DNA from: Candidatus Brocadia sp.
GTDB lineage: Bacteria; Planctomycetota; Brocadiia; Brocadiales; Brocadiaceae
Length of the DNA: 32,000 bases
Direction: 5' to 3'
Assembly (NCBI GenBank): GCA_021650915.1
Contig: CP091279.1
Coordinates: forward strand, 1,020,001-1,052,000
In this document: positions 7,504 through 26,775 of the stretch, in pieces
Numbering within the stretch: the first letter of the stretch is position 1
Layout: the number at the start of each line of letters is the position of its first letter
Notes under the pieces: generated by a model
What the model was told of the DNA's origin: nothing
The model's input: the letters and a program-made list of their open reading frames with translations, nothing else
Databases searched by the model: none
Program-made: the position numbers and the translations under genes

Positions 7504-7944
7504 TTATTTATTGTCATTCTGTGCCCTGGCAGGTGTCGGCTCGGTTTCCCGGGTTCCTGCCGGAACAGGTCTGGGAATGGATTCTGCAATACTATTATCA
7601 ACTTCTTTTTTCTTCTCTTCTACCTGCACGTCAATTTCCCTGAGTTTTTCTATATCACTTTTCAGATCATCAATCGCAACCCTGGCACTCTGCAGTTCAT
7701 CCGCAAGTCTACCGATTTCCTGATCTTTCATCGACAGACGATCCAAGAGATCCGCAATCGTTTTTTCCTTAAAGTGAAGGGCAAGATTGATGTTTTCCAT
7801 TTCTTTGTTTTTTGCATTTAACTCTTTGCGGGCAGAACAGACGCAACCAGTATTATACATAAGTATGGCTGCGAAAAAACAGAGAACACCAGAGTGTTTT
7901 ATCGATACCCTAATCATCATTTCCTTTCCCATAATCTTTTTCAT
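7504..7944 (-). CDS. Exported or membrane-anchored coiled-coil protein (hypothetical)
   Basis: 146 aa. N-terminal hydrophobic segment GVLCFFAAILMYNTGC (non-canonical lipobox), then heptad-like charged sequence (KEMENINLALHFKEKTIADLLDRLSMKDQEIGRLADELQSARVAIDDLKSDIEKLREIDVQVEEKKKE). The ATG overlaps the HK stop as ATGA (7941-7944). It ends 18 nt before the RR start. Confidence 0.7.
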   Translation of the reverse strand: MKKIMGKEMMIRVSIKHSGVLCFFAAILMYNTGCVCSARKELNAKNKEMENINLALHFKEKTIADLLDRLSMKDQEIGRLADELQSARVAIDDLKSDIEKLREIDVQVEEKKKEVDNSIAESIPRPVPAGTRETEPTPARAQNDNK

Positions 7945-9527
7945 GGTAAATAAAAGACTTCCTTCTCTGAATGCAGTGCGTAATCATATCTGAAGGGAAG
8001 AGTAAAATGAAACGTACTCCCCCCCTCCGTATTTCTTTCTACCCAAATATCACCTCCGTGATCAAGGATAATGTGTTTAACAATGGAAAGCCCTAATCCT
8101 GTTCCTTTCATACCGCCTTTTGCCTTGTTGCTCACCTGCTGAAATTTGTCAAAGATCGTTTTATGACATTCGACCGGTATCCCAATTCCCGTGTCTGATA
8201 TACTGACCTGAACGAAAGAACAAATATTATTCAGTCTGCTTTGTTCTGCAAAAAATCGGGGAACGGTTTTGGAGTCGACCTCACTCATGGTTATAATAAT
8301 TCGTCCTCCAGATGGAGTAAATTTAATGGCATTGCTTAGGAGATTATCCATGACCTGTGCAATCTTTTCACGATCAAGTAAGACTTTCGGTAAACCTCCC
8401 GACTTCTTCCATTGGATATGAATTTTTTTACTCTCTGCCAAAAACCGTATCTCATCAGCACTTTTTCGAATAATATCCTGCAGGGAAGACTCCTGGAAAT
8501 TGTATCGCATCAATCCTGCCTCTATCCGCGAGATGTCCAGCAGGTCATTAATCATCATCGTAAGCCTGATGGTCTCCTCTTTGGTAATATTCAGGAGTTT
8601 TGTCTGCTCAGAGGATATTGGACCGGCAATTTTTTTTAACAGAAGGTCGTTTGCTTCGCGGATGACCGTTAAAGGGGTTTTCAGGTCATGGGAGACATGC
8701 GAAACAAAATCGGTTTTCATCTGATCCATTTCTTTGAGTTTATTGCACATTTGATTAAATGCCATTCCCAGCGTGCCAATCTCGTCACTGGACGTTACTT
8801 CAATCCGATGATTTAAATCCCCATGAGCGATATGCTCTGTCGCATCCTTGAGAATTTTTATAGGAAAGCATATGCTCCGGATGAAAAAGTAGGCGAAAAC
8901 CACTCCAAACAGAACAGCAAACAGGATAATGACAAGGGACATCTGGGTGGATCTGTATCCAACTTTCTGAAGCAGTTCGATTTTTTTAATCAATTCCGTC
9001 TGGGTGACAAGGATGAGTTTATGAATCGATTCCGTAAGCTGGTCAAGTGTCTTTTTCTTCTCTTCTTTGTATCGGGTATCAGACGAAACAGCCTCATTCT
9101 GTCCCATCAGGACAATTTCTTTTGAAACCAGAGAAAGATATTTTTTATACAGTTCCTTTGTCTGCTGGATTCCCCCGCTCTCACCTCGATCCGCTATCGA
9201 CTCTTCCAGATATTTGAGCCGCTCCAGAAATTCCTTCTTTTTCTGATCAAAGAGGTCACGAAAAGCGTTGTCGTTCGTAATGAGATATTTTTTTTCATTT
9301 CTCACCTGCTCAAGAAAACAATCTACCAGCTTCTCTCCATTTTCTATGAAAGGAATGTCTGACCTCATAATGGAGTCGGTAACTTTATTGAGATAGTTAA
9401 GACGATAAATCAGATAAAAACTCATTACCATCATCAACATCACAATGGTAAGATAACCGGAAAGCATTCTCTTCCAGAGGCTATTTTTTAGCATAACGAA
9501 TGATACTGTGAGGCTTTGCCTGTCCAC
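7941..9527 (-). CDS. Membrane sensor histidine kinase (two TM, helical periplasmic sensor, HAMP, HisKA, HATPase_c)
   Basis: 528 aa from a GTG start; ATG at 9494 is an alternative. TM1 about residues 25-45 and TM2 about 195-215. HAMP (IAHGDLNHRIEVTSSDEIGTLGMAFNQM), H-box FVSHVSHDLKTPL, N/G boxes (NLLSNAIKFTP, DTGIGIP, GTGLGLSIVK). Confidence 0.9.
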   Translation of the reverse strand: MDRQSLTVSFVMLKNSLWKRMLSGYLTIVMLMMVMSFYLIYRLNYLNKVTDSIMRSDIPFIENGEKLVDCFLEQVRNEKKYLITNDNAFRDLFDQKKKEFLERLKYLEESIADRGESGGIQQTKELYKKYLSLVSKEIVLMGQNEAVSSDTRYKEEKKKTLDQLTESIHKLILVTQTELIKKIELLQKVGYRSTQMSLVIILFAVLFGVVFAYFFIRSICFPIKILKDATEHIAHGDLNHRIEVTSSDEIGTLGMAFNQMCNKLKEMDQMKTDFVSHVSHDLKTPLTVIREANDLLLKKIAGPISSEQTKLLNITKEETIRLTMMINDLLDISRIEAGLMRYNFQESSLQDIIRKSADEIRFLAESKKIHIQWKKSGGLPKVLLDREKIAQVMDNLLSNAIKFTPSGGRIIITMSEVDSKTVPRFFAEQSRLNNICSFVQVSISDTGIGIPVECHKTIFDKFQQVSNKAKGGMKGTGLGLSIVKHIILDHGGDIWVERNTEGGSTFHFTLPFRYDYALHSEKEVFYLP

Positions 9528-15499: not shown

Positions 15500-15528
15500 T
15501 TGACTATCTCAATCGTATGTGATATATT
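15500..15528 (+). promoter_or_regulatory. sigma-70-like promoter TTGACT-N17-TATATT for the unknown-function cassette
   Basis: TTGACT at 15500-15505, 17-nt spacer, TATATT at 15523-15528, about 60 nt upstream of ATG 15590. Confidence 0.5.
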
Positions 15529-15589: not shown

Positions 15590-15958
15590 ATGAAATCAAT
15601 GGCACCAAAAAAGCACGCTACGAATAAGCTTGTTTTAAGTTCCTTTTTCAGGATAATTACCATTGATGGAAAGACGGAACAAGTAACGACGAGGGTGAGA
15701 AGAACGCTTTTTTTCGATGATGAAGACAGTTTCCCTTTTTCAAAGATAAAAAATGTGGAAGTTGCAAAGGATATCAAAGAATCGATACCAAACGATTGTA
15801 TACGATACCTCGTGTTATTGAATTTGGCAAACGGGGACAAGATTCTAATCGATGAGATTGGCGAGTCTTCTCCTCGTGGAGGCATGAGAGAAATGAAAAA
15901 TCTTGGGAAAAAAATCAGCGCCATAACAGGAAAAACACTGAAAACGTTTGAAGATTAA
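15590..15958 (+). CDS. Hypothetical small soluble protein (122 aa)
   Basis: Strong SD AGGAGG (15581-15586) 3 nt before the ATG. No TM segment or signal peptide, no family recognised. Preferred over the almost fully overlapping antisense ORF 15448-15924, which is low-complexity and lacks an SD. Confidence 0.65.
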   Translation: MKSMAPKKHATNKLVLSSFFRIITIDGKTEQVTTRVRRTLFFDDEDSFPFSKIKNVEVAKDIKESIPNDCIRYLVLLNLANGDKILIDEIGESSPRGGMREMKNLGKKISAITGKTLKTFED

Positions 15959-16029: not shown

Positions 16030-16596
16030 ATGCAATGTGCGAAATGGTATCTGCCCATGCTCGGTGTTGTCATTTTAGGAATACCGGCATGGTGTAATGC
16101 ATTCGATATACACCTGACGCAAGAGCAATTAAAAGAGGCAAATGAGTACGGCGCACAATATAAAGGAAAGGAGATTTTTGAAAGCGCAATTGGAAAATCC
16201 GCCCGCTTTGGTGAATACCCTGGCGGGGACGGCGGATTGATTATGAGTAAATATATGAGAGTCGCAGTGAGTTCTGCCATGAGGGCGCTGAAAAATGAGG
16301 CGCTCACACCACAGGACTTAAAAGAGATTGATGCATCAACGACGTTCAATGTGATTGTAAGTATCCCCGAAGAGAACATACAAAACCCGGAGGACGTCCA
16401 GATATTGCTCATACAAGGGACCAATAATATTCTGCCACAAAAGACCGAGTTTGGCATGAAGTACAAAGATAAAAGACAAGGGATTATTGGCATCTTTTCC
16501 TATGAAAAAATCAACCCAAAAGCAAGCACTACAATCCTGATCAAAACGCGAAATGACGAGAGAAAATTTACCATTGATTTTTCTGATGTAAAATGA
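16030..16596 (+). CDS. Exported protein of unknown function (paralogue of 24518-25114)
   Basis: 188 aa. Signal peptide MQCAKWYLPMLGVVILGIPAWCNA, GGAGG SD. Colinear similarity to the 198-aa protein at 24518-25114: IHLTQEQLKEANEYG vs IHYSLSEEQIKQAIAYG; LTPQDLKEI vs LTDAEIYQSL; TILIKTRNDERKFTIDF vs LVILSPLNNERRFVFPL. Confidence 0.8.
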   Translation: MQCAKWYLPMLGVVILGIPAWCNAFDIHLTQEQLKEANEYGAQYKGKEIFESAIGKSARFGEYPGGDGGLIMSKYMRVAVSSAMRALKNEALTPQDLKEIDASTTFNVIVSIPEENIQNPEDVQILLIQGTNNILPQKTEFGMKYKDKRQGIIGIFSYEKINPKASTTILIKTRNDERKFTIDFSDVK

Positions 16597-17654
16597 TCAA
16601 GACCTTAGAAAATAAAAAAACAGGACCGAAACGGACGTTCAGGGATAAAATATTTGATTATTCCTGTCAAAAAATTGGTAAACAAAGGACAAAGACATTT
16701 TTTAAATTATACGATCTTGCCAGGTTTGACCTCTTTGGCAAACCAAAAGGCGCAATCGGTTCAATTGATATTACCAACCGCTGCAATCTGCGTTGCAAAC
16801 ATTGCTACTTTTATGCGCATGACTACGAAAAGCAGCCTGAACTCACCGATGATGAATGGATTGAAAAACTGGAGAGTTTAAAGGAGACCGATTTCCCATT
16901 CTATCAATGTTCCTGGGTTGGTGGTGAGCCGCTCCTGCGAAAGGATCTTGTTGAACGGGGGATGAAATATTTCAAATCAAACCTGATAGCTACCAACGGC
17001 ACCATTGAACTGCCCAACTGGCCTGATGTGAATTTTTATATATCGGTCGATGGCAGAAAAGAGATGCACGATGCCATTCGGGGAAAGGGCTGCTATGATA
17101 AGATACTGAAAAATGCATCCAGGCCTGATTTAAAGATTCATGTATCGATGGTAGTTAACAAAATGAATTACCAGGATATTGAGTATTTTATTGAAGAATG
17201 GAAAGACCGTGGCGTCAAAGGCTGTTTATTTCAAATACACACGCCCGTAAAAGGATTACAGAACGACGATCTTTGGCCTGGCTGGCAATTGCGTGACGAG
17301 ATATTAGATACCCTGCTAAAGCTCAAAGAGGAAAAATACGGTGATTTCATCGGCGTACCAGGCCTCGTCCTCAAACTCATGAAGTCTGATAAGTGTAAAG
17401 AGATTACCAGAAATTGTATTTTCAAAAAGGTAGCCTTTTGTTTCGATCCACAGGGCCAGATTAAAAAGCCCTGTATGATGGGTCCGCAGGCAGACTGCCT
17501 CCGGTGTGGGTGTGTGCTCCCCTTTCATATGTGGGCGCTTGAAGACAAGTGGCTCATGGCGAGAGAACTTCTTATATCCCTGCGTCGGAAGAAGGTGAAA
17601 AAAAATCCCGCGATATCTTCCCAACCCGAACGAGTCGGAAAAGAAATACGGTAG
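16593..17654 (+). CDS. Radical SAM enzyme with Cys-rich C-terminal extension
   Basis: 353 aa. CxxxCxxC at C64/C68/C71 (IDITNRCNLRCKHCYF, nt 16782-16805) and GGEPLL. Seven Cys at residues 268-307 (KCKEITRNCIFKKVAFCFDPQGQIKKPCMMGPQADCLRCGC). The start overlaps the upstream stop as ATGA (16593-16596). Confidence 0.9.
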   Translation: MIKTLENKKTGPKRTFRDKIFDYSCQKIGKQRTKTFFKLYDLARFDLFGKPKGAIGSIDITNRCNLRCKHCYFYAHDYEKQPELTDDEWIEKLESLKETDFPFYQCSWVGGEPLLRKDLVERGMKYFKSNLIATNGTIELPNWPDVNFYISVDGRKEMHDAIRGKGCYDKILKNASRPDLKIHVSMVVNKMNYQDIEYFIEEWKDRGVKGCLFQIHTPVKGLQNDDLWPGWQLRDEILDTLLKLKEEKYGDFIGVPGLVLKLMKSDKCKEITRNCIFKKVAFCFDPQGQIKKPCMMGPQADCLRCGCVLPFHMWALEDKWLMARELLISLRRKKVKKNPAISSQPERVGKEIR

Positions 17655-23598: not shown

Positions 23599-23626
23599 AT
23601 TTTACCTTTCCTCTTGCCAATGTCAA
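23599..23626 (-). promoter_or_regulatory. sigma-70-like promoter TTGACA-N16-TAAAAT (minus strand) for fbp-fba
   Basis: Plus-strand TGTCAA at 23621-23626 and ATTTTA at 23599-23604, about 40 nt upstream of ATG 23556, which has a GAAGGAG SD. Confidence 0.5.
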
Positions 23627-23726: not shown

Positions 23727-24521
23727 CTATGTGCAGGAAGAAACAATCTGAAACCGCCGGTCGCTGAAGAGATGATTCATCGGGGTTATATTTTTATCCC
23801 GGGCAACGGTGGGACCAATTTCAACCGTCATCGCCTCTTCCCGGTCCGGTGAGGCACGACAGAGCATCTCCCCTTTCGTCCCGACAATCTGGCTGGTACC
23901 AATAAAGGCGAGCGTTTCCTCAGTGCGGAGCTCCGTTCCAATACGGTTTGCGGTGATAGCAAAGACCCTGTTTTCAATGCATCGCGTTATCATGGCCTGC
24001 GGACAGTAGGGAAGAACAAGGTTTGCAGGATGACAGATAATATCTGCCCCCTGTATCGCCAGATATCGTGCAACTTCGGGGAAAAACCAGTCAAAACAGA
24101 TCATGACACCAACCTTCGCTTTTCCGATGTCATACACCGTTAATCCTCTGTTCCCTGGCTCAAACCACTGCTTCTCATGATAAAAGAGATGTAATTTCCG
24201 GTAACATCCGATAAACCCCTGCGGTCCCACCAGGATGGACGAGTTATAACAACGCCCCTGATCCCGTTCCACCAGACCAGCGACAAGATGGACACCCTTT
24301 TCCTTTGAAAGCTTCATGAGTGCGCGCGTTGTCTGCCCTTCCGGGACTTCCTCTGCCAGGGCAATGACCTCTTCCCTGGAGGCGAACTGATACCCCGTAT
24401 TAAACAATTCAGGCAAGACAATGAGATCGGCCTGCAGCGATTGTATCATGATCACCGCCCTTTCGATGTTCTCATCCTTTTTCCCAAAGAAGGGAGATGT
24501 TTGCAGAAATCCAACCTTCAT
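23727..24521 (-). CDS. Carbon-nitrogen hydrolase (nitrilase superfamily)
   Basis: 264 aa. Glu-Lys-Cys triad context: VLPELFNTGY, YRKLHLF, VGVMICFDWFFPE. No TM segment. The ATG overlaps the upstream stop as ATGA (24518-24521), with GGAG inside the upstream coding end. Confidence 0.9.
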   Translation of the reverse strand: MKVGFLQTSPFFGKKDENIERAVIMIQSLQADLIVLPELFNTGYQFASREEVIALAEEVPEGQTTRALMKLSKEKGVHLVAGLVERDQGRCYNSSILVGPQGFIGCYRKLHLFYHEKQWFEPGNRGLTVYDIGKAKVGVMICFDWFFPEVARYLAIQGADIICHPANLVLPYCPQAMITRCIENRVFAITANRIGTELRTEETLAFIGTSQIVGTKGEMLCRASPDREEAMTVEIGPTVARDKNITPMNHLFSDRRFQIVSSCT

Positions 24522-25114
24522 CGCATCTCCTTCAGAGGGAAGACAAATCTTCGTTCGTTGTTCAAGGGACTCAGGATGACCAGACAGACCTCTTCATCGG
24601 GTTCCACAAAATAATTCGGAAAATCATACCGGCAGGTGGCACGATAGCTTCCAGACAATCTGATTCCAAGATTGGTAGGCCTGGCACGGGGGTCATTTTG
24701 CTCATTGACAGGCTGAATGGGTTTGTTTTTATACAATAATACCGCATGATACTCCCGGGAGAAATCGGGAGAATTGCCATACAACACCACCTGAAATGAC
24801 AAAATATCGTCCACCTCCGACAGGGATTGATATATCTCGGCGTCCGTTAACTTCCTGACGGACAGGGATGCCTGCCTTGCTTTATATGCCAGTATGCTGA
24901 ATTTGGTGTTTAATGCTGCCCACTCATATCCCTCTTGCGATACCACAACCCACTCGTCCAAAAAAGGAATATCGTCCAAGCTGTTGTTCTTTTCGCCATA
25001 CGCGATAGCCTGTTTAATCTGTTCTTCGGACAGGCTATAGTGTATAGCGTCTACCTTACTGGAAAGGACAAAAACCAGCATGAACGTCAGGAGCGGAATG
25101 CATCTTTGCCGCAT
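24518..25114 (-). CDS. Exported protein of unknown function (paralogue of 16030-16596)
   Basis: 198 aa. Signal peptide MRQRCIPLLTFMLVFVLSSKVDA. Colinear similarity to the 188-aa protein at 16030-16596 (see that entry). Confidence 0.8.
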   Translation of the reverse strand: MRQRCIPLLTFMLVFVLSSKVDAIHYSLSEEQIKQAIAYGEKNNSLDDIPFLDEWVVVSQEGYEWAALNTKFSILAYKARQASLSVRKLTDAEIYQSLSEVDDILSFQVVLYGNSPDFSREYHAVLLYKNKPIQPVNEQNDPRARPTNLGIRLSGSYRATCRYDFPNYFVEPDEEVCLVILSPLNNERRFVFPLKEMR

Positions 25115-25286: not shown

Positions 25287-26051
25287 ATGAAAGTAACCTT
25301 TCTGGGGACAGGCACATCACACGGAATTCCCATGATTGCCTGCAGTTGCAAGGTTTGCACCTCTGATAATCCCAAGAATAAACGCATGCGCACATCGGTG
25401 CTGGTGAGTACAAACGGATATAATATCCTGATTGACGCCACGCCGGAACTAAGGCTCCAGTGCATTAAAAACAAGATTACAAAACTGGATGCCGTGCTTA
25501 TCACCCATCCCCATGCAGACCACATTTTTGGCCTCGATGATCTCCGGCGATTCAATATGATTCAGCGAATGGATATTCCCATTTATGGCACCCCGAAAAC
25601 CCTTGACACCATACGCCACACGTTCTCCTATGTATTTACGACCCATTCTGAGACGGGTGGTTATAAACCCCGCTTCTCCCTGAAGATTATCAACGGCGAT
25701 TTGACCATTGAAGGGATTCCCATTGTACCCGTAAAGGCGCATCATGGTGAGGGAGAGGTAACGGGGTACCGATTTGATAAATTTGCTTATGTGACCGATG
25801 TCAGCGATATCCCTGAAGAATCTTTGGAAAAACTCCATGACCTGGACGTACTTGTCTTAGGCGCACTTCGCTATACACCGCACATAAAGCACTTCAGCAT
25901 CGAACAGGCATTGCGCGTCGTCAGGAAGCTCAGGCCACAGAAGGCGTACTTTACCCACATGTGCCACGACATCGAACACGAAGAAGACGGCAATAAACTT
26001 CCCGCAGGGGTAGAATTTGCTTTTGACGGCCTGATGATTGACCTTTCCTGA
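25287..26051 (+). CDS. MBL-fold metallo-hydrolase (PhnP-like)
   Basis: The ORF-track start (25080) overlaps the divergent gene. The domain begins at ATG 25287 (MKVTFLGTGTSHGIP) with GGGAG upstream. HPHADH motif (ITHPHADHIFGLDD) and a CSCKVC zinc-ribbon-like insert as in PhnP-type enzymes. Confidence 0.85.
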   Translation: MKVTFLGTGTSHGIPMIACSCKVCTSDNPKNKRMRTSVLVSTNGYNILIDATPELRLQCIKNKITKLDAVLITHPHADHIFGLDDLRRFNMIQRMDIPIYGTPKTLDTIRHTFSYVFTTHSETGGYKPRFSLKIINGDLTIEGIPIVPVKAHHGEGEVTGYRFDKFAYVTDVSDIPEESLEKLHDLDVLVLGALRYTPHIKHFSIEQALRVVRKLRPQKAYFTHMCHDIEHEEDGNKLPAGVEFAFDGLMIDLS

Positions 26052-26111: not shown

Positions 26112-26705
26112 TTACCAGCCGAACAAACTGCGTTTCGATATTTTTCGCAATTCTTTTTCGTCAGCCCATTCGATAATTCCGGTTTCCAGTTCCATAAGAT
26201 TGAGGGTAAATTTATAGTAAATATCTTTCACGTTGCTCGTTCTCTTAACGATACTCGCAAAATTGCCGTACAGCATATATTCAGCTCCAATCTGACGGCC
26301 AAAGGCCGCAGCCGTGGTTTGATTCACCATACCTCCTTCATTTTGGAACTCAAACTGTTTTTTCGCGGCATCGACCTTTGTCATATCCACAAAGCGAAAC
26401 TTGCCTGAACGCAAAATCTTTGTCCTGACAGTATCAGTAATCGACTCTGTATCGATATGCTCCAGGGTTTTATTCTTAATGACGTCTACAAAAATAACCG
26501 GGCTCCGTTCGTTTGTCATTTGCACAATCGGCGGAAAGGAAAGGAGGGAATCCACCATTTTATTGGCAATCTGCTGCAAATCAGTCAACCCAAAATCAGC
26601 CGTAGTTGTTTCCTCCTTTGTCACATCCTTATACTTCACGCTTGTAGCGCATCCTGCGCCCATCACCACGCACATACCCCATATCAATTTCTTTAACCCA
26701 TACAT
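26112..26705 (-). CDS. LpoB/YcfM-like lipoprotein (COG3417, penicillin-binding-protein-activator-like)
   Basis: I prefer ATG 26705 (MYGLKKLIWGMCVVMGAGC, lipobox MGAGC), with AAGGAGG 9 nt upstream, over the ORF-track start 26759. Body: PVIFVDVIKNKTLEHID...ILRSGKFRFVD...AAAFGRQIGAEYMLYGNF...YYKFTLNLMELETGIIEW. Confidence 0.75.
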   Translation of the reverse strand: MYGLKKLIWGMCVVMGAGCATSVKYKDVTKEETTTADFGLTDLQQIANKMVDSLLSFPPIVQMTNERSPVIFVDVIKNKTLEHIDTESITDTVRTKILRSGKFRFVDMTKVDAAKKQFEFQNEGGMVNQTTAAAFGRQIGAEYMLYGNFASIVKRTSNVKDIYYKFTLNLMELETGIIEWADEKELRKISKRSLFGW

Positions 26706-26775
26706 TCCTGGTATCCTCCTTATAATAAATTCCTTACTCGCGGGAAAGACAAAATCCAAAGCACGAAATTTGCAA

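Follow-up and report, generated by a model that had tools for sequence, protein, structure and literature searches.

In a 32,000-nucleotide (nt) window of the genome of Candidatus Brocadia sp. (GCA_021650915.1, contig CP091279.1, positions 1,020,001 to 1,052,000 of the forward strand; all coordinates below are those of the window unless a locus is named), two genes, here called A and B, encode small proteins with predicted signal peptides, and the stop codon of each overlaps the start codon of an enzyme gene. The enzyme is a C-N hydrolase of the nitrilase superfamily for A and a radical S-adenosylmethionine (SAM) enzyme for B. A and B are anciently diverged homologs that belong to different subfamilies of one protein family, and each coupling is conserved across the Brocadiaceae. 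The enzyme partner characterizes each orthologous group, with vertical inheritance in the Brocadiaceae, and not the family as a whole. We favor, with a probability of roughly 55%, the reading that A and B are exported modules without catalytic activity, each co-expressed with a partner enzyme specific to its lineage.

Genes A and B each overlap the start of an enzyme gene

Gene A (24518..25114, minus strand) encodes a protein of 198 amino acids (aa) that is assigned, from its open reading frame (ORF), its orthologs, and its AlphaFold2 (AF2) model, to subfamily A of an undescribed α+β-sandwich family. Its predicted signal peptide (25046..25114, minus strand) covers residues 1 to 23, MRQRCIPLLTFMLVFVLSSKVDA, and, as read from the sequence, would be cleaved after VDA. 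The gene directly downstream (23727..24521, minus strand) encodes a 264-aa protein without a signal peptide, identified as a C-N hydrolase by its match to PF00795 in a Pfam scan (E = 6.7e-49) and by an intact catalytic triad of Glu38, Lys109, and Cys142. The junction between the two genes, CTGAAGGAGATGCGATGAAGG, was read directly: A ends in GAG ATG CGA TGA, in which the final A of the Arg codon CGA together with the TG of the stop codon makes up the hydrolase ATG, giving an ATGA stop/start overlap at 24518..24521 (minus strand). The sequence AAGGAG (24527..24532, minus strand), 5 nt before the hydrolase ATG and within the last codons of A (LKEMR), resembles a Shine-Dalgarno site and is a putative one.

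Gene B (16030..16596, plus strand) encodes a 188-aa protein, likewise predicted to be exported and placed, by its ORF, orthologs, and AF2 model, in subfamily B of the same family. Its predicted signal peptide (16030..16101, plus strand) comprises residues 1 to 24, with cleavage expected after CNA. The final codons of B read GTA AAA TGA, and the radical SAM gene begins at an ATG that overlaps this stop codon in the same way as at the A/hydrolase junction (ATGA at 16593-16596, plus strand, also read directly). The radical SAM gene (16593..17654, plus strand) encodes 353 aa and was assigned by PF04055 (E = 1.6e-16) and by the motif CNLRCKHC (CX3CX2C) at residues 64 to 71. The first gene of this cluster is a 122-aa ORF (15590..15958, plus strand) that lies 71 nt upstream of B and has no Pfam or NCBIfam match. 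A promoter-like site (15500-15528) precedes it, and the 122-aa ORF, B, and the radical SAM gene probably form a three-gene unit, the promoter being suggested by weak consensus matches. The initial annotation of this DNA had described two exported ORFs of about 190 aa, each with a signal-peptide layout and each overlapping by ATGA a signal-less enzyme gene, and both descriptions hold.

The N-termini of A and B have the positive/hydrophobic/small-x-Ala layout of a Sec type I signal, as judged from the sequences and the family alignments, with 12-aa Kyte-Doolittle maxima of 2.77 for A and 2.25 for B. The −1 Ala is invariant in each orthologous group (Ala23 in A and Ala24 in B), and the predicted local distance difference test score (pLDDT) of the AF2 models falls below 50 for residues 1 to 4 and 11 to 23 of A and for residues 1 to 21 of B. 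Both proteins are predicted to be exported by the Sec pathway. No signal-peptide-like segment was found in the sequence or hydropathy profile of the hydrolase or the radical SAM enzyme. Lipoprotein and Tat signals were considered for A and B and rejected: neither a lipobox nor a consistent twin-arginine motif is present, and the Cys close to the cleavage site of B lacks conservation in the B-family alignment.

A and B are distant homologs

Pairwise BLASTP gave a marginal match between A and B (E = 6e-4; 107 aa aligned, signal peptide included, at 21% identity), and single-sequence searches of 5.8 billion proteins with A and with B each retrieved only their own orthologs and never the other family, so that profiles were needed. 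When alignments of 30 orthologs each were compared with hhalign, A and B matched with a probability of 94.4% and an E value of 9.2e-8 over 154 colinear columns, which run from after the signal peptides to the C-termini; the relatedness that the initial annotation had proposed for the two proteins is upheld by this profile alignment. Hidden Markov models (HMMs) of the mature part only detected the other group at 19 to 21 bits, compared with 6.8 bits for the best of 600 shuffled sequences. In an all-versus-all BLASTP of 122 family representatives, a single component was obtained at ≥40 bits, and many intermediates match both A and B, for example P0210, with 76.6 bits to A and 57.8 bits to B.

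The AF2 models of the two proteins, both confident (pLDDT of 82.6 for A and 85.2 for B), were compared by the order of their secondary-structure elements, which is the same in both: a long N-terminal helix, short helices, a β-hairpin, two helices, and a seven-strand sandwich. The short motifs first quoted as common to A and B are present and fall into aligned columns of both the hhalign and the MAFFT alignments, although the C-terminal motif had been placed one residue off for B. That the two proteins are unrelated and resemble each other by chance or composition, through a signal peptide and low complexity, is exceedingly improbable: the weakness of the BLASTP match, its inclusion of the signal peptide, and the failure of either single-sequence search to reach the other family would speak for it, but it is refuted by the profile-profile match across the whole mature length, the mature-only HMM cross-matches above shuffled controls, the bridging sequences that join A and B, and the identical predicted topology. 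The homology of A and B is confirmed.

A and B belong to a large family without a curated model

To define the family, a profile of the merged A and B alignments was searched against 1.84 billion representative proteins. At 50% identity, the family comprises 319 clusters at E ≤ 1e-3 and 120 clusters at E ≤ 1e-10. Its members are mostly 185 to 205 aa long and are matched end to end; some of the longer ones have a Cu_amine_oxidN1 or TPR domain at the N-terminus. The named members come from Brocadiales (including Scalindua, Bathyanammoxibius, Avalokitesvara, and Hypogeohydataceae), from other Planctomycetota, and from Nitrospirota. A separate search that started from 122 aligned sequences recovered little beyond orthologs of A and B and put no names to the distant members. 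Orthologs of A form 107 clusters, all of those with a source name being from Brocadiales or Planctomycetota, and orthologs of B form 77 clusters. For the two proteins together, the source-named homologs are from Brocadia, Jettenia, Loosdrechtia, another Brocadiales metagenome-assembled genome (MAG), or a MAG with no label beyond Planctomycetota/Planctomycetia.

The family divides into about ten subfamilies. A falls with Nitrospirota proteins and with a third Brocadia paralog, represented by the P0190 cluster to which BBO17575.1 of Ca. Brocadia pituitae belongs, and is nearer to these than to B, whereas B groups with a Scalindua protein. Since A and B are in different subfamilies, they are not a recent or private duplicate pair, and the initial description of one as a second copy of the other gives way to that of two members of a 319-cluster family. 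Brocadia has at least three paralogs, the third being observed in Ca. Brocadia pituitae and not in this genome. A check of the window and of the fetched loci for further family members or tandem copies found none beyond A and B. A B-like subfamily from other Planctomycetota and Brocadiales (P0188, P0191, and P0193; L051-L053) has, in the half that forms the sandwich, an insertion rich in Cys (CCE[LW]C...) that is missing from both A and B. In another part of the family, L044, a sister of the members of the P0204 subfamily, has a lipobox-like LNGC.

Sizeable as it is, the family is undescribed in Pfam, NCBIfam, and the PDB. No Pfam-A or NCBIfam model covers the shared domain in A, B, or ten distant members, and the best match of a family profile among PDB sequences had an E value of 0.11, with none under 0.1. 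Foldseek searches of the PDB with both models, and of BFVD with the B model, found only generic immunoglobulin (Ig)-like sandwiches, matched over the C-terminal ~100 residues (E about 1e-3, template modeling score about 0.3, 5-20% identity). The likeness of this part of the A and B models to the Ig-like β-sandwich of antibody constant-type domains in the PDB is one of fold class and not of family kinship, and the N-terminal helical half of A and B has no match. Clusters of hypothetical proteins from Brocadiales, other Planctomycetota, and Nitrospirota, such as BBO17575.1, ODS31317.1 (Ca. Scalindua rubra), and MFQ5455206.1 (a Nitrospirota MAG), share with A and B the family HMM, a length of ~190-205 aa, the colinear motifs, and, in most cases, an N-terminal signal peptide; their gene neighbors are other than those of A and B, and none has been named, modeled in Pfam or NCBIfam, or solved structurally.

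Only A36, G40, and F165 (A numbering) are near-invariant family-wide. No conserved polar or catalytic-type residue was found across the family alignment, which makes a binding or structural module more likely than an enzyme. Within the A-family alignment, Cys161 is invariant.

Each coupling is conserved across the Brocadiaceae

The loci of A were scanned in one genome per GTDB species, which gave 28 loci, all from Brocadiales. In 25 of the 28, A is immediately followed by the hydrolase gene, and the 4-nt overlap is present in 24 of these 25 pairs, the remaining one (L036) having a gap of about 15 nt. Listed as exceptions besides this gapped pair are a Brocadiaceae MAG in which A stands alone, without the hydrolase (L029), and a contig that ends just after A (L034), which is uninformative for the pairing. 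Apart from these loci, the complete Jettenia genome CP091278 (L001, 4609-5788) has, after A, an 89-aa ORF with no Pfam match and an FGE-sulfatase-family gene, and no hydrolase. Jettenia ecosi (L031) retains the hydrolase. One A-family cluster representative, P0076, is 320 aa long and has a C-N hydrolase Pfam match, for which a fusion, a frameshifted read-through, or a gene-calling artifact are possible explanations.

For B, the order SurA-like gene, ~120-aa ORF, B, and radical SAM gene is kept in all three of the other genomes that were compared, from Jettenia, Loosdrechtia, and a further MAG with a 2.9-Mb contig (L006, L007, and L008). The A/hydrolase overlap is kept down to 57% identity of A, and retention of the overlap over roughly 55-80% protein identity argues for a functional link, of whatever kind.

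The best NCBIfam match of the hydrolase is the archaeal-type nitrilase NF040852, with which it shares the Glu-Lys-Cys triad and a full-length alignment (1-258 of 262), but the score of 324.2 bits is under the equivalog cutoff of 500 bits, and substrate specificity is therefore not transferable. We know of no nitrilase with an exported partner, and a literature search for anammox and nitrilase did not find the A/hydrolase gene pair.

No enzyme partner is shared by the family

An exported family repeatedly coupled to enzymes would have been a striking trait, and the initial annotation had set as a test whether relatives in other genomes favor an overlapping enzyme gene downstream; this fails across the family. 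The shared role as carrier, substrate, or sensor that the initial annotation had read into the repeated coupling is a conjecture. No ATGA-overlapping enzyme gene is found at the third Brocadia paralog or at about a dozen distant loci, where the neighbors are unrelated. The third paralog has small unknown ORFs upstream and a gap of ~155 nt to a downstream ORF with weak TPR/coiled-coil matches. Neighbors of distant members include a methyltransferase and a convergent ThyX gene, an MtrB/PioB-type porin with multiheme cytochromes, an HNH nuclease, an M48 peptidase with an extracytoplasmic function (ECF)/anti-sigma gene, an ACT protein, and housekeeping genes; one distant subfamily was represented by 10 metagenome loci. 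At two loci (L046 and L047) 12 nt separate the family gene from a membrane M48 peptidase gene downstream, and next in L047 comes a gene that combines a zinc-finger anti-sigma domain with sigma-70 region 4. The sole suggestive case is L040 (1985-7165), a MAG of non-Brocadiaceae Brocadiales in which an A-like gene lies 3 nt upstream of an O-methyltransferase gene, the same-strand order being glutaredoxin, SPASM radical SAM enzyme, NYN nuclease, family member, O-methyltransferase, and B12-binding radical SAM enzyme.

The identical ATGA at the A and B junctions, pointed out in the initial annotation, also occurs at 7941-7944 (minus strand) between unrelated genes at 7941-9527 and 7504-7944. The overlap type is therefore common in this genome, being found in 3 of about 17 co-directional gene pairs in the window. 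As ATGA is the commonest type of overlap, its coincidence at the two loci is by itself weak evidence.

A proposed co-expressed exported module and its alternatives

In the model that we favor, the conserved domain of ~175 aa, an N-terminal helical part with a β-hairpin followed by a seven-strand Ig-like β-sandwich, would act in an extracytoplasmic compartment, either the periplasm or the anammoxosome, after export of A and B by their Sec-type signal peptides, and would serve as a non-catalytic binding or structural module. Each ortholog would be expressed from its own conserved operon upstream of its enzyme, A before the hydrolase and B between the 122-aa ORF and the radical SAM gene. The ATGA overlap would provide translational coupling, for A with the Shine-Dalgarno-like site within its last codons, so that the exported protein and its enzyme would be made together; because both would be made together, we infer that the two proteins of each pair take part in one physiological process. 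Three points weigh against this model. Export of A and B is predicted from sequence; several members of the P0204 subfamily (L045-L048) start at the mature domain (MYT.GIK.NLTEEE...) and have no signal peptide, so that the domain is not always extracytoplasmic; and descent by itself could account for synteny that is kept within a single bacterial family.

This last point can be extended into a different explanation, that operon compaction and vertical inheritance in the Brocadiaceae produced the synteny and that the exported proteins are unrelated in function to the enzymes. Such an origin would fit the frequency of ATGA in the window, the restriction of the conserved pairings to one bacterial family, the persistence of A without the hydrolase in two lineages (Jettenia CP091278 and L029), and the lack of a preferred partner in the wider family. 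It accounts less readily for a 4-nt overlap that is kept in 24 of 25 loci while A diverges to 57% identity, for an order of 122-aa ORF, B, and radical SAM gene that is maintained in three of three other genomes although the flanking genes change, and for a promoter-like site that sets the A/hydrolase pair apart from the next gene. We consider it possible but rather unlikely.

A further alternative is that the adjacent enzyme modifies the exported protein in the cytoplasm before Sec export, the family being a scaffold for different tailoring enzymes. Radical SAM maturases paired with exported substrates are known, such as the anaerobic sulfatase-maturating enzyme (anSME) with sulfatase and QhpD with QhpC. 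The B locus resembles these pairs, as a lead only, in having a radical SAM enzyme with extra C-terminal Cys residues beside an exported protein and in the tight stop/start coupling. The radical SAM enzyme has seven further Cys residues at 268-307, and the nearest NCBIfam models to it are SPASM-type maturases of proteins, peptides, or cofactors; all of these, however, are far under their cutoffs, the maturase models scoring 35-66 bits against cutoffs of 265-650 and sulfatase_rSAM scoring 38 bits against 349. Neither the SPASM domain (PF13186) nor an RRE-type domain was found in the enzyme by a Pfam scan at E ≤ 1. On these scores it does not classify as a SPASM/twitch maturase, and its Cys-rich C-terminal stretch is suggestive only.

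The candidate substrates also differ from those of the known pairs, as no target motif is conserved. Cys59 is near-invariant in the mature B family (ACFGEYP), and is its only such Cys, but it is replaced by Arg in this genome (SARFGEYP), and the mature part of B in this window contains no Cys at all. The predicted structures of A and B are compact folds without a leader/core layout, and most family members have no adjacent enzyme. For the A pair, C-N hydrolases are to our knowledge not known as protein maturases, apart from the membrane-bound Lnt. Modification of the exported protein by its neighbor is in our view improbable. A broader version, in which the tailoring enzymes that act before export would be interchangeable, is slightly less probable. 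B would be served by the Cys-rich radical SAM enzyme and A by the C-N hydrolase; in the sister lineage of L040, where the A-like gene is 3 nt from the methyltransferase gene and a SPASM radical SAM enzyme is encoded upstream, the enzymes would be an O-methyltransferase with a B12-radical SAM enzyme; and in the one Jettenia genome, CP091278, where A is followed by the 89-aa ORF and the FGE-sulfatase-family gene, an FGE-like enzyme would take this part. The L040 and Jettenia neighborhoods speak for either version. If true, a tailored scaffold of this kind would be a protein-level analog of the maturation of ribosomally synthesized and post-translationally modified peptides (RiPPs), concentrated in anammox bacteria and their relatives.

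At present, the finding is at the level of a domain of unknown function in ordinary operon architecture, with no new mechanism. Two Brocadia paralogs of the family are tied to conserved coupled operons, one with a nitrilase-like hydrolase and one with an orphan radical SAM enzyme, and anammox biology gains two concrete gene pairs as candidates for study.

Neighboring genes

A role in ladderane synthesis was considered for the B-linked radical SAM gene and rejected. Ladderane radical SAM genes, as proposed in anammox bacteria, are embedded in type II fatty acid synthesis (FASII) gene clusters (PMC2649909), and the ladderane link was dropped because the B-linked gene lies outside a FASII cluster: on one side of it are B, the 122-aa ORF, and the SurA-like gene, and on the other a Na+/H+ exchanger gene.

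Divergent from A is the gene of a metallo-β-lactamase (MBL)-fold hydrolase (25287..26051, plus strand), given here as context with no functional link to A implied. It scores 339.5 bits with NF038231 ('GPMC system MBL fold metallohydrolase'), for which the cutoff is 360, and it is upstream of and divergent from A in most A loci, including the Jettenia locus that has no C-N hydrolase. Next to the MBL gene, several Brocadia loci conserve a 215-aa ORF with a hydrophobic N-terminus (26112-26759, minus strand; 72-87% identity by tblastn). On the other side of the A/hydrolase pair, a sigma-70-like site (23599-23626, minus strand) lies between the hydrolase gene and the downstream fructose bisphosphatase (FBPase) gene; with TTGACA, a spacing of 16 nt, and TAAAAT, it agrees with the consensus at 11 of 12 positions, and this weak consensus match suggests that the FBPase gene has its own promoter.

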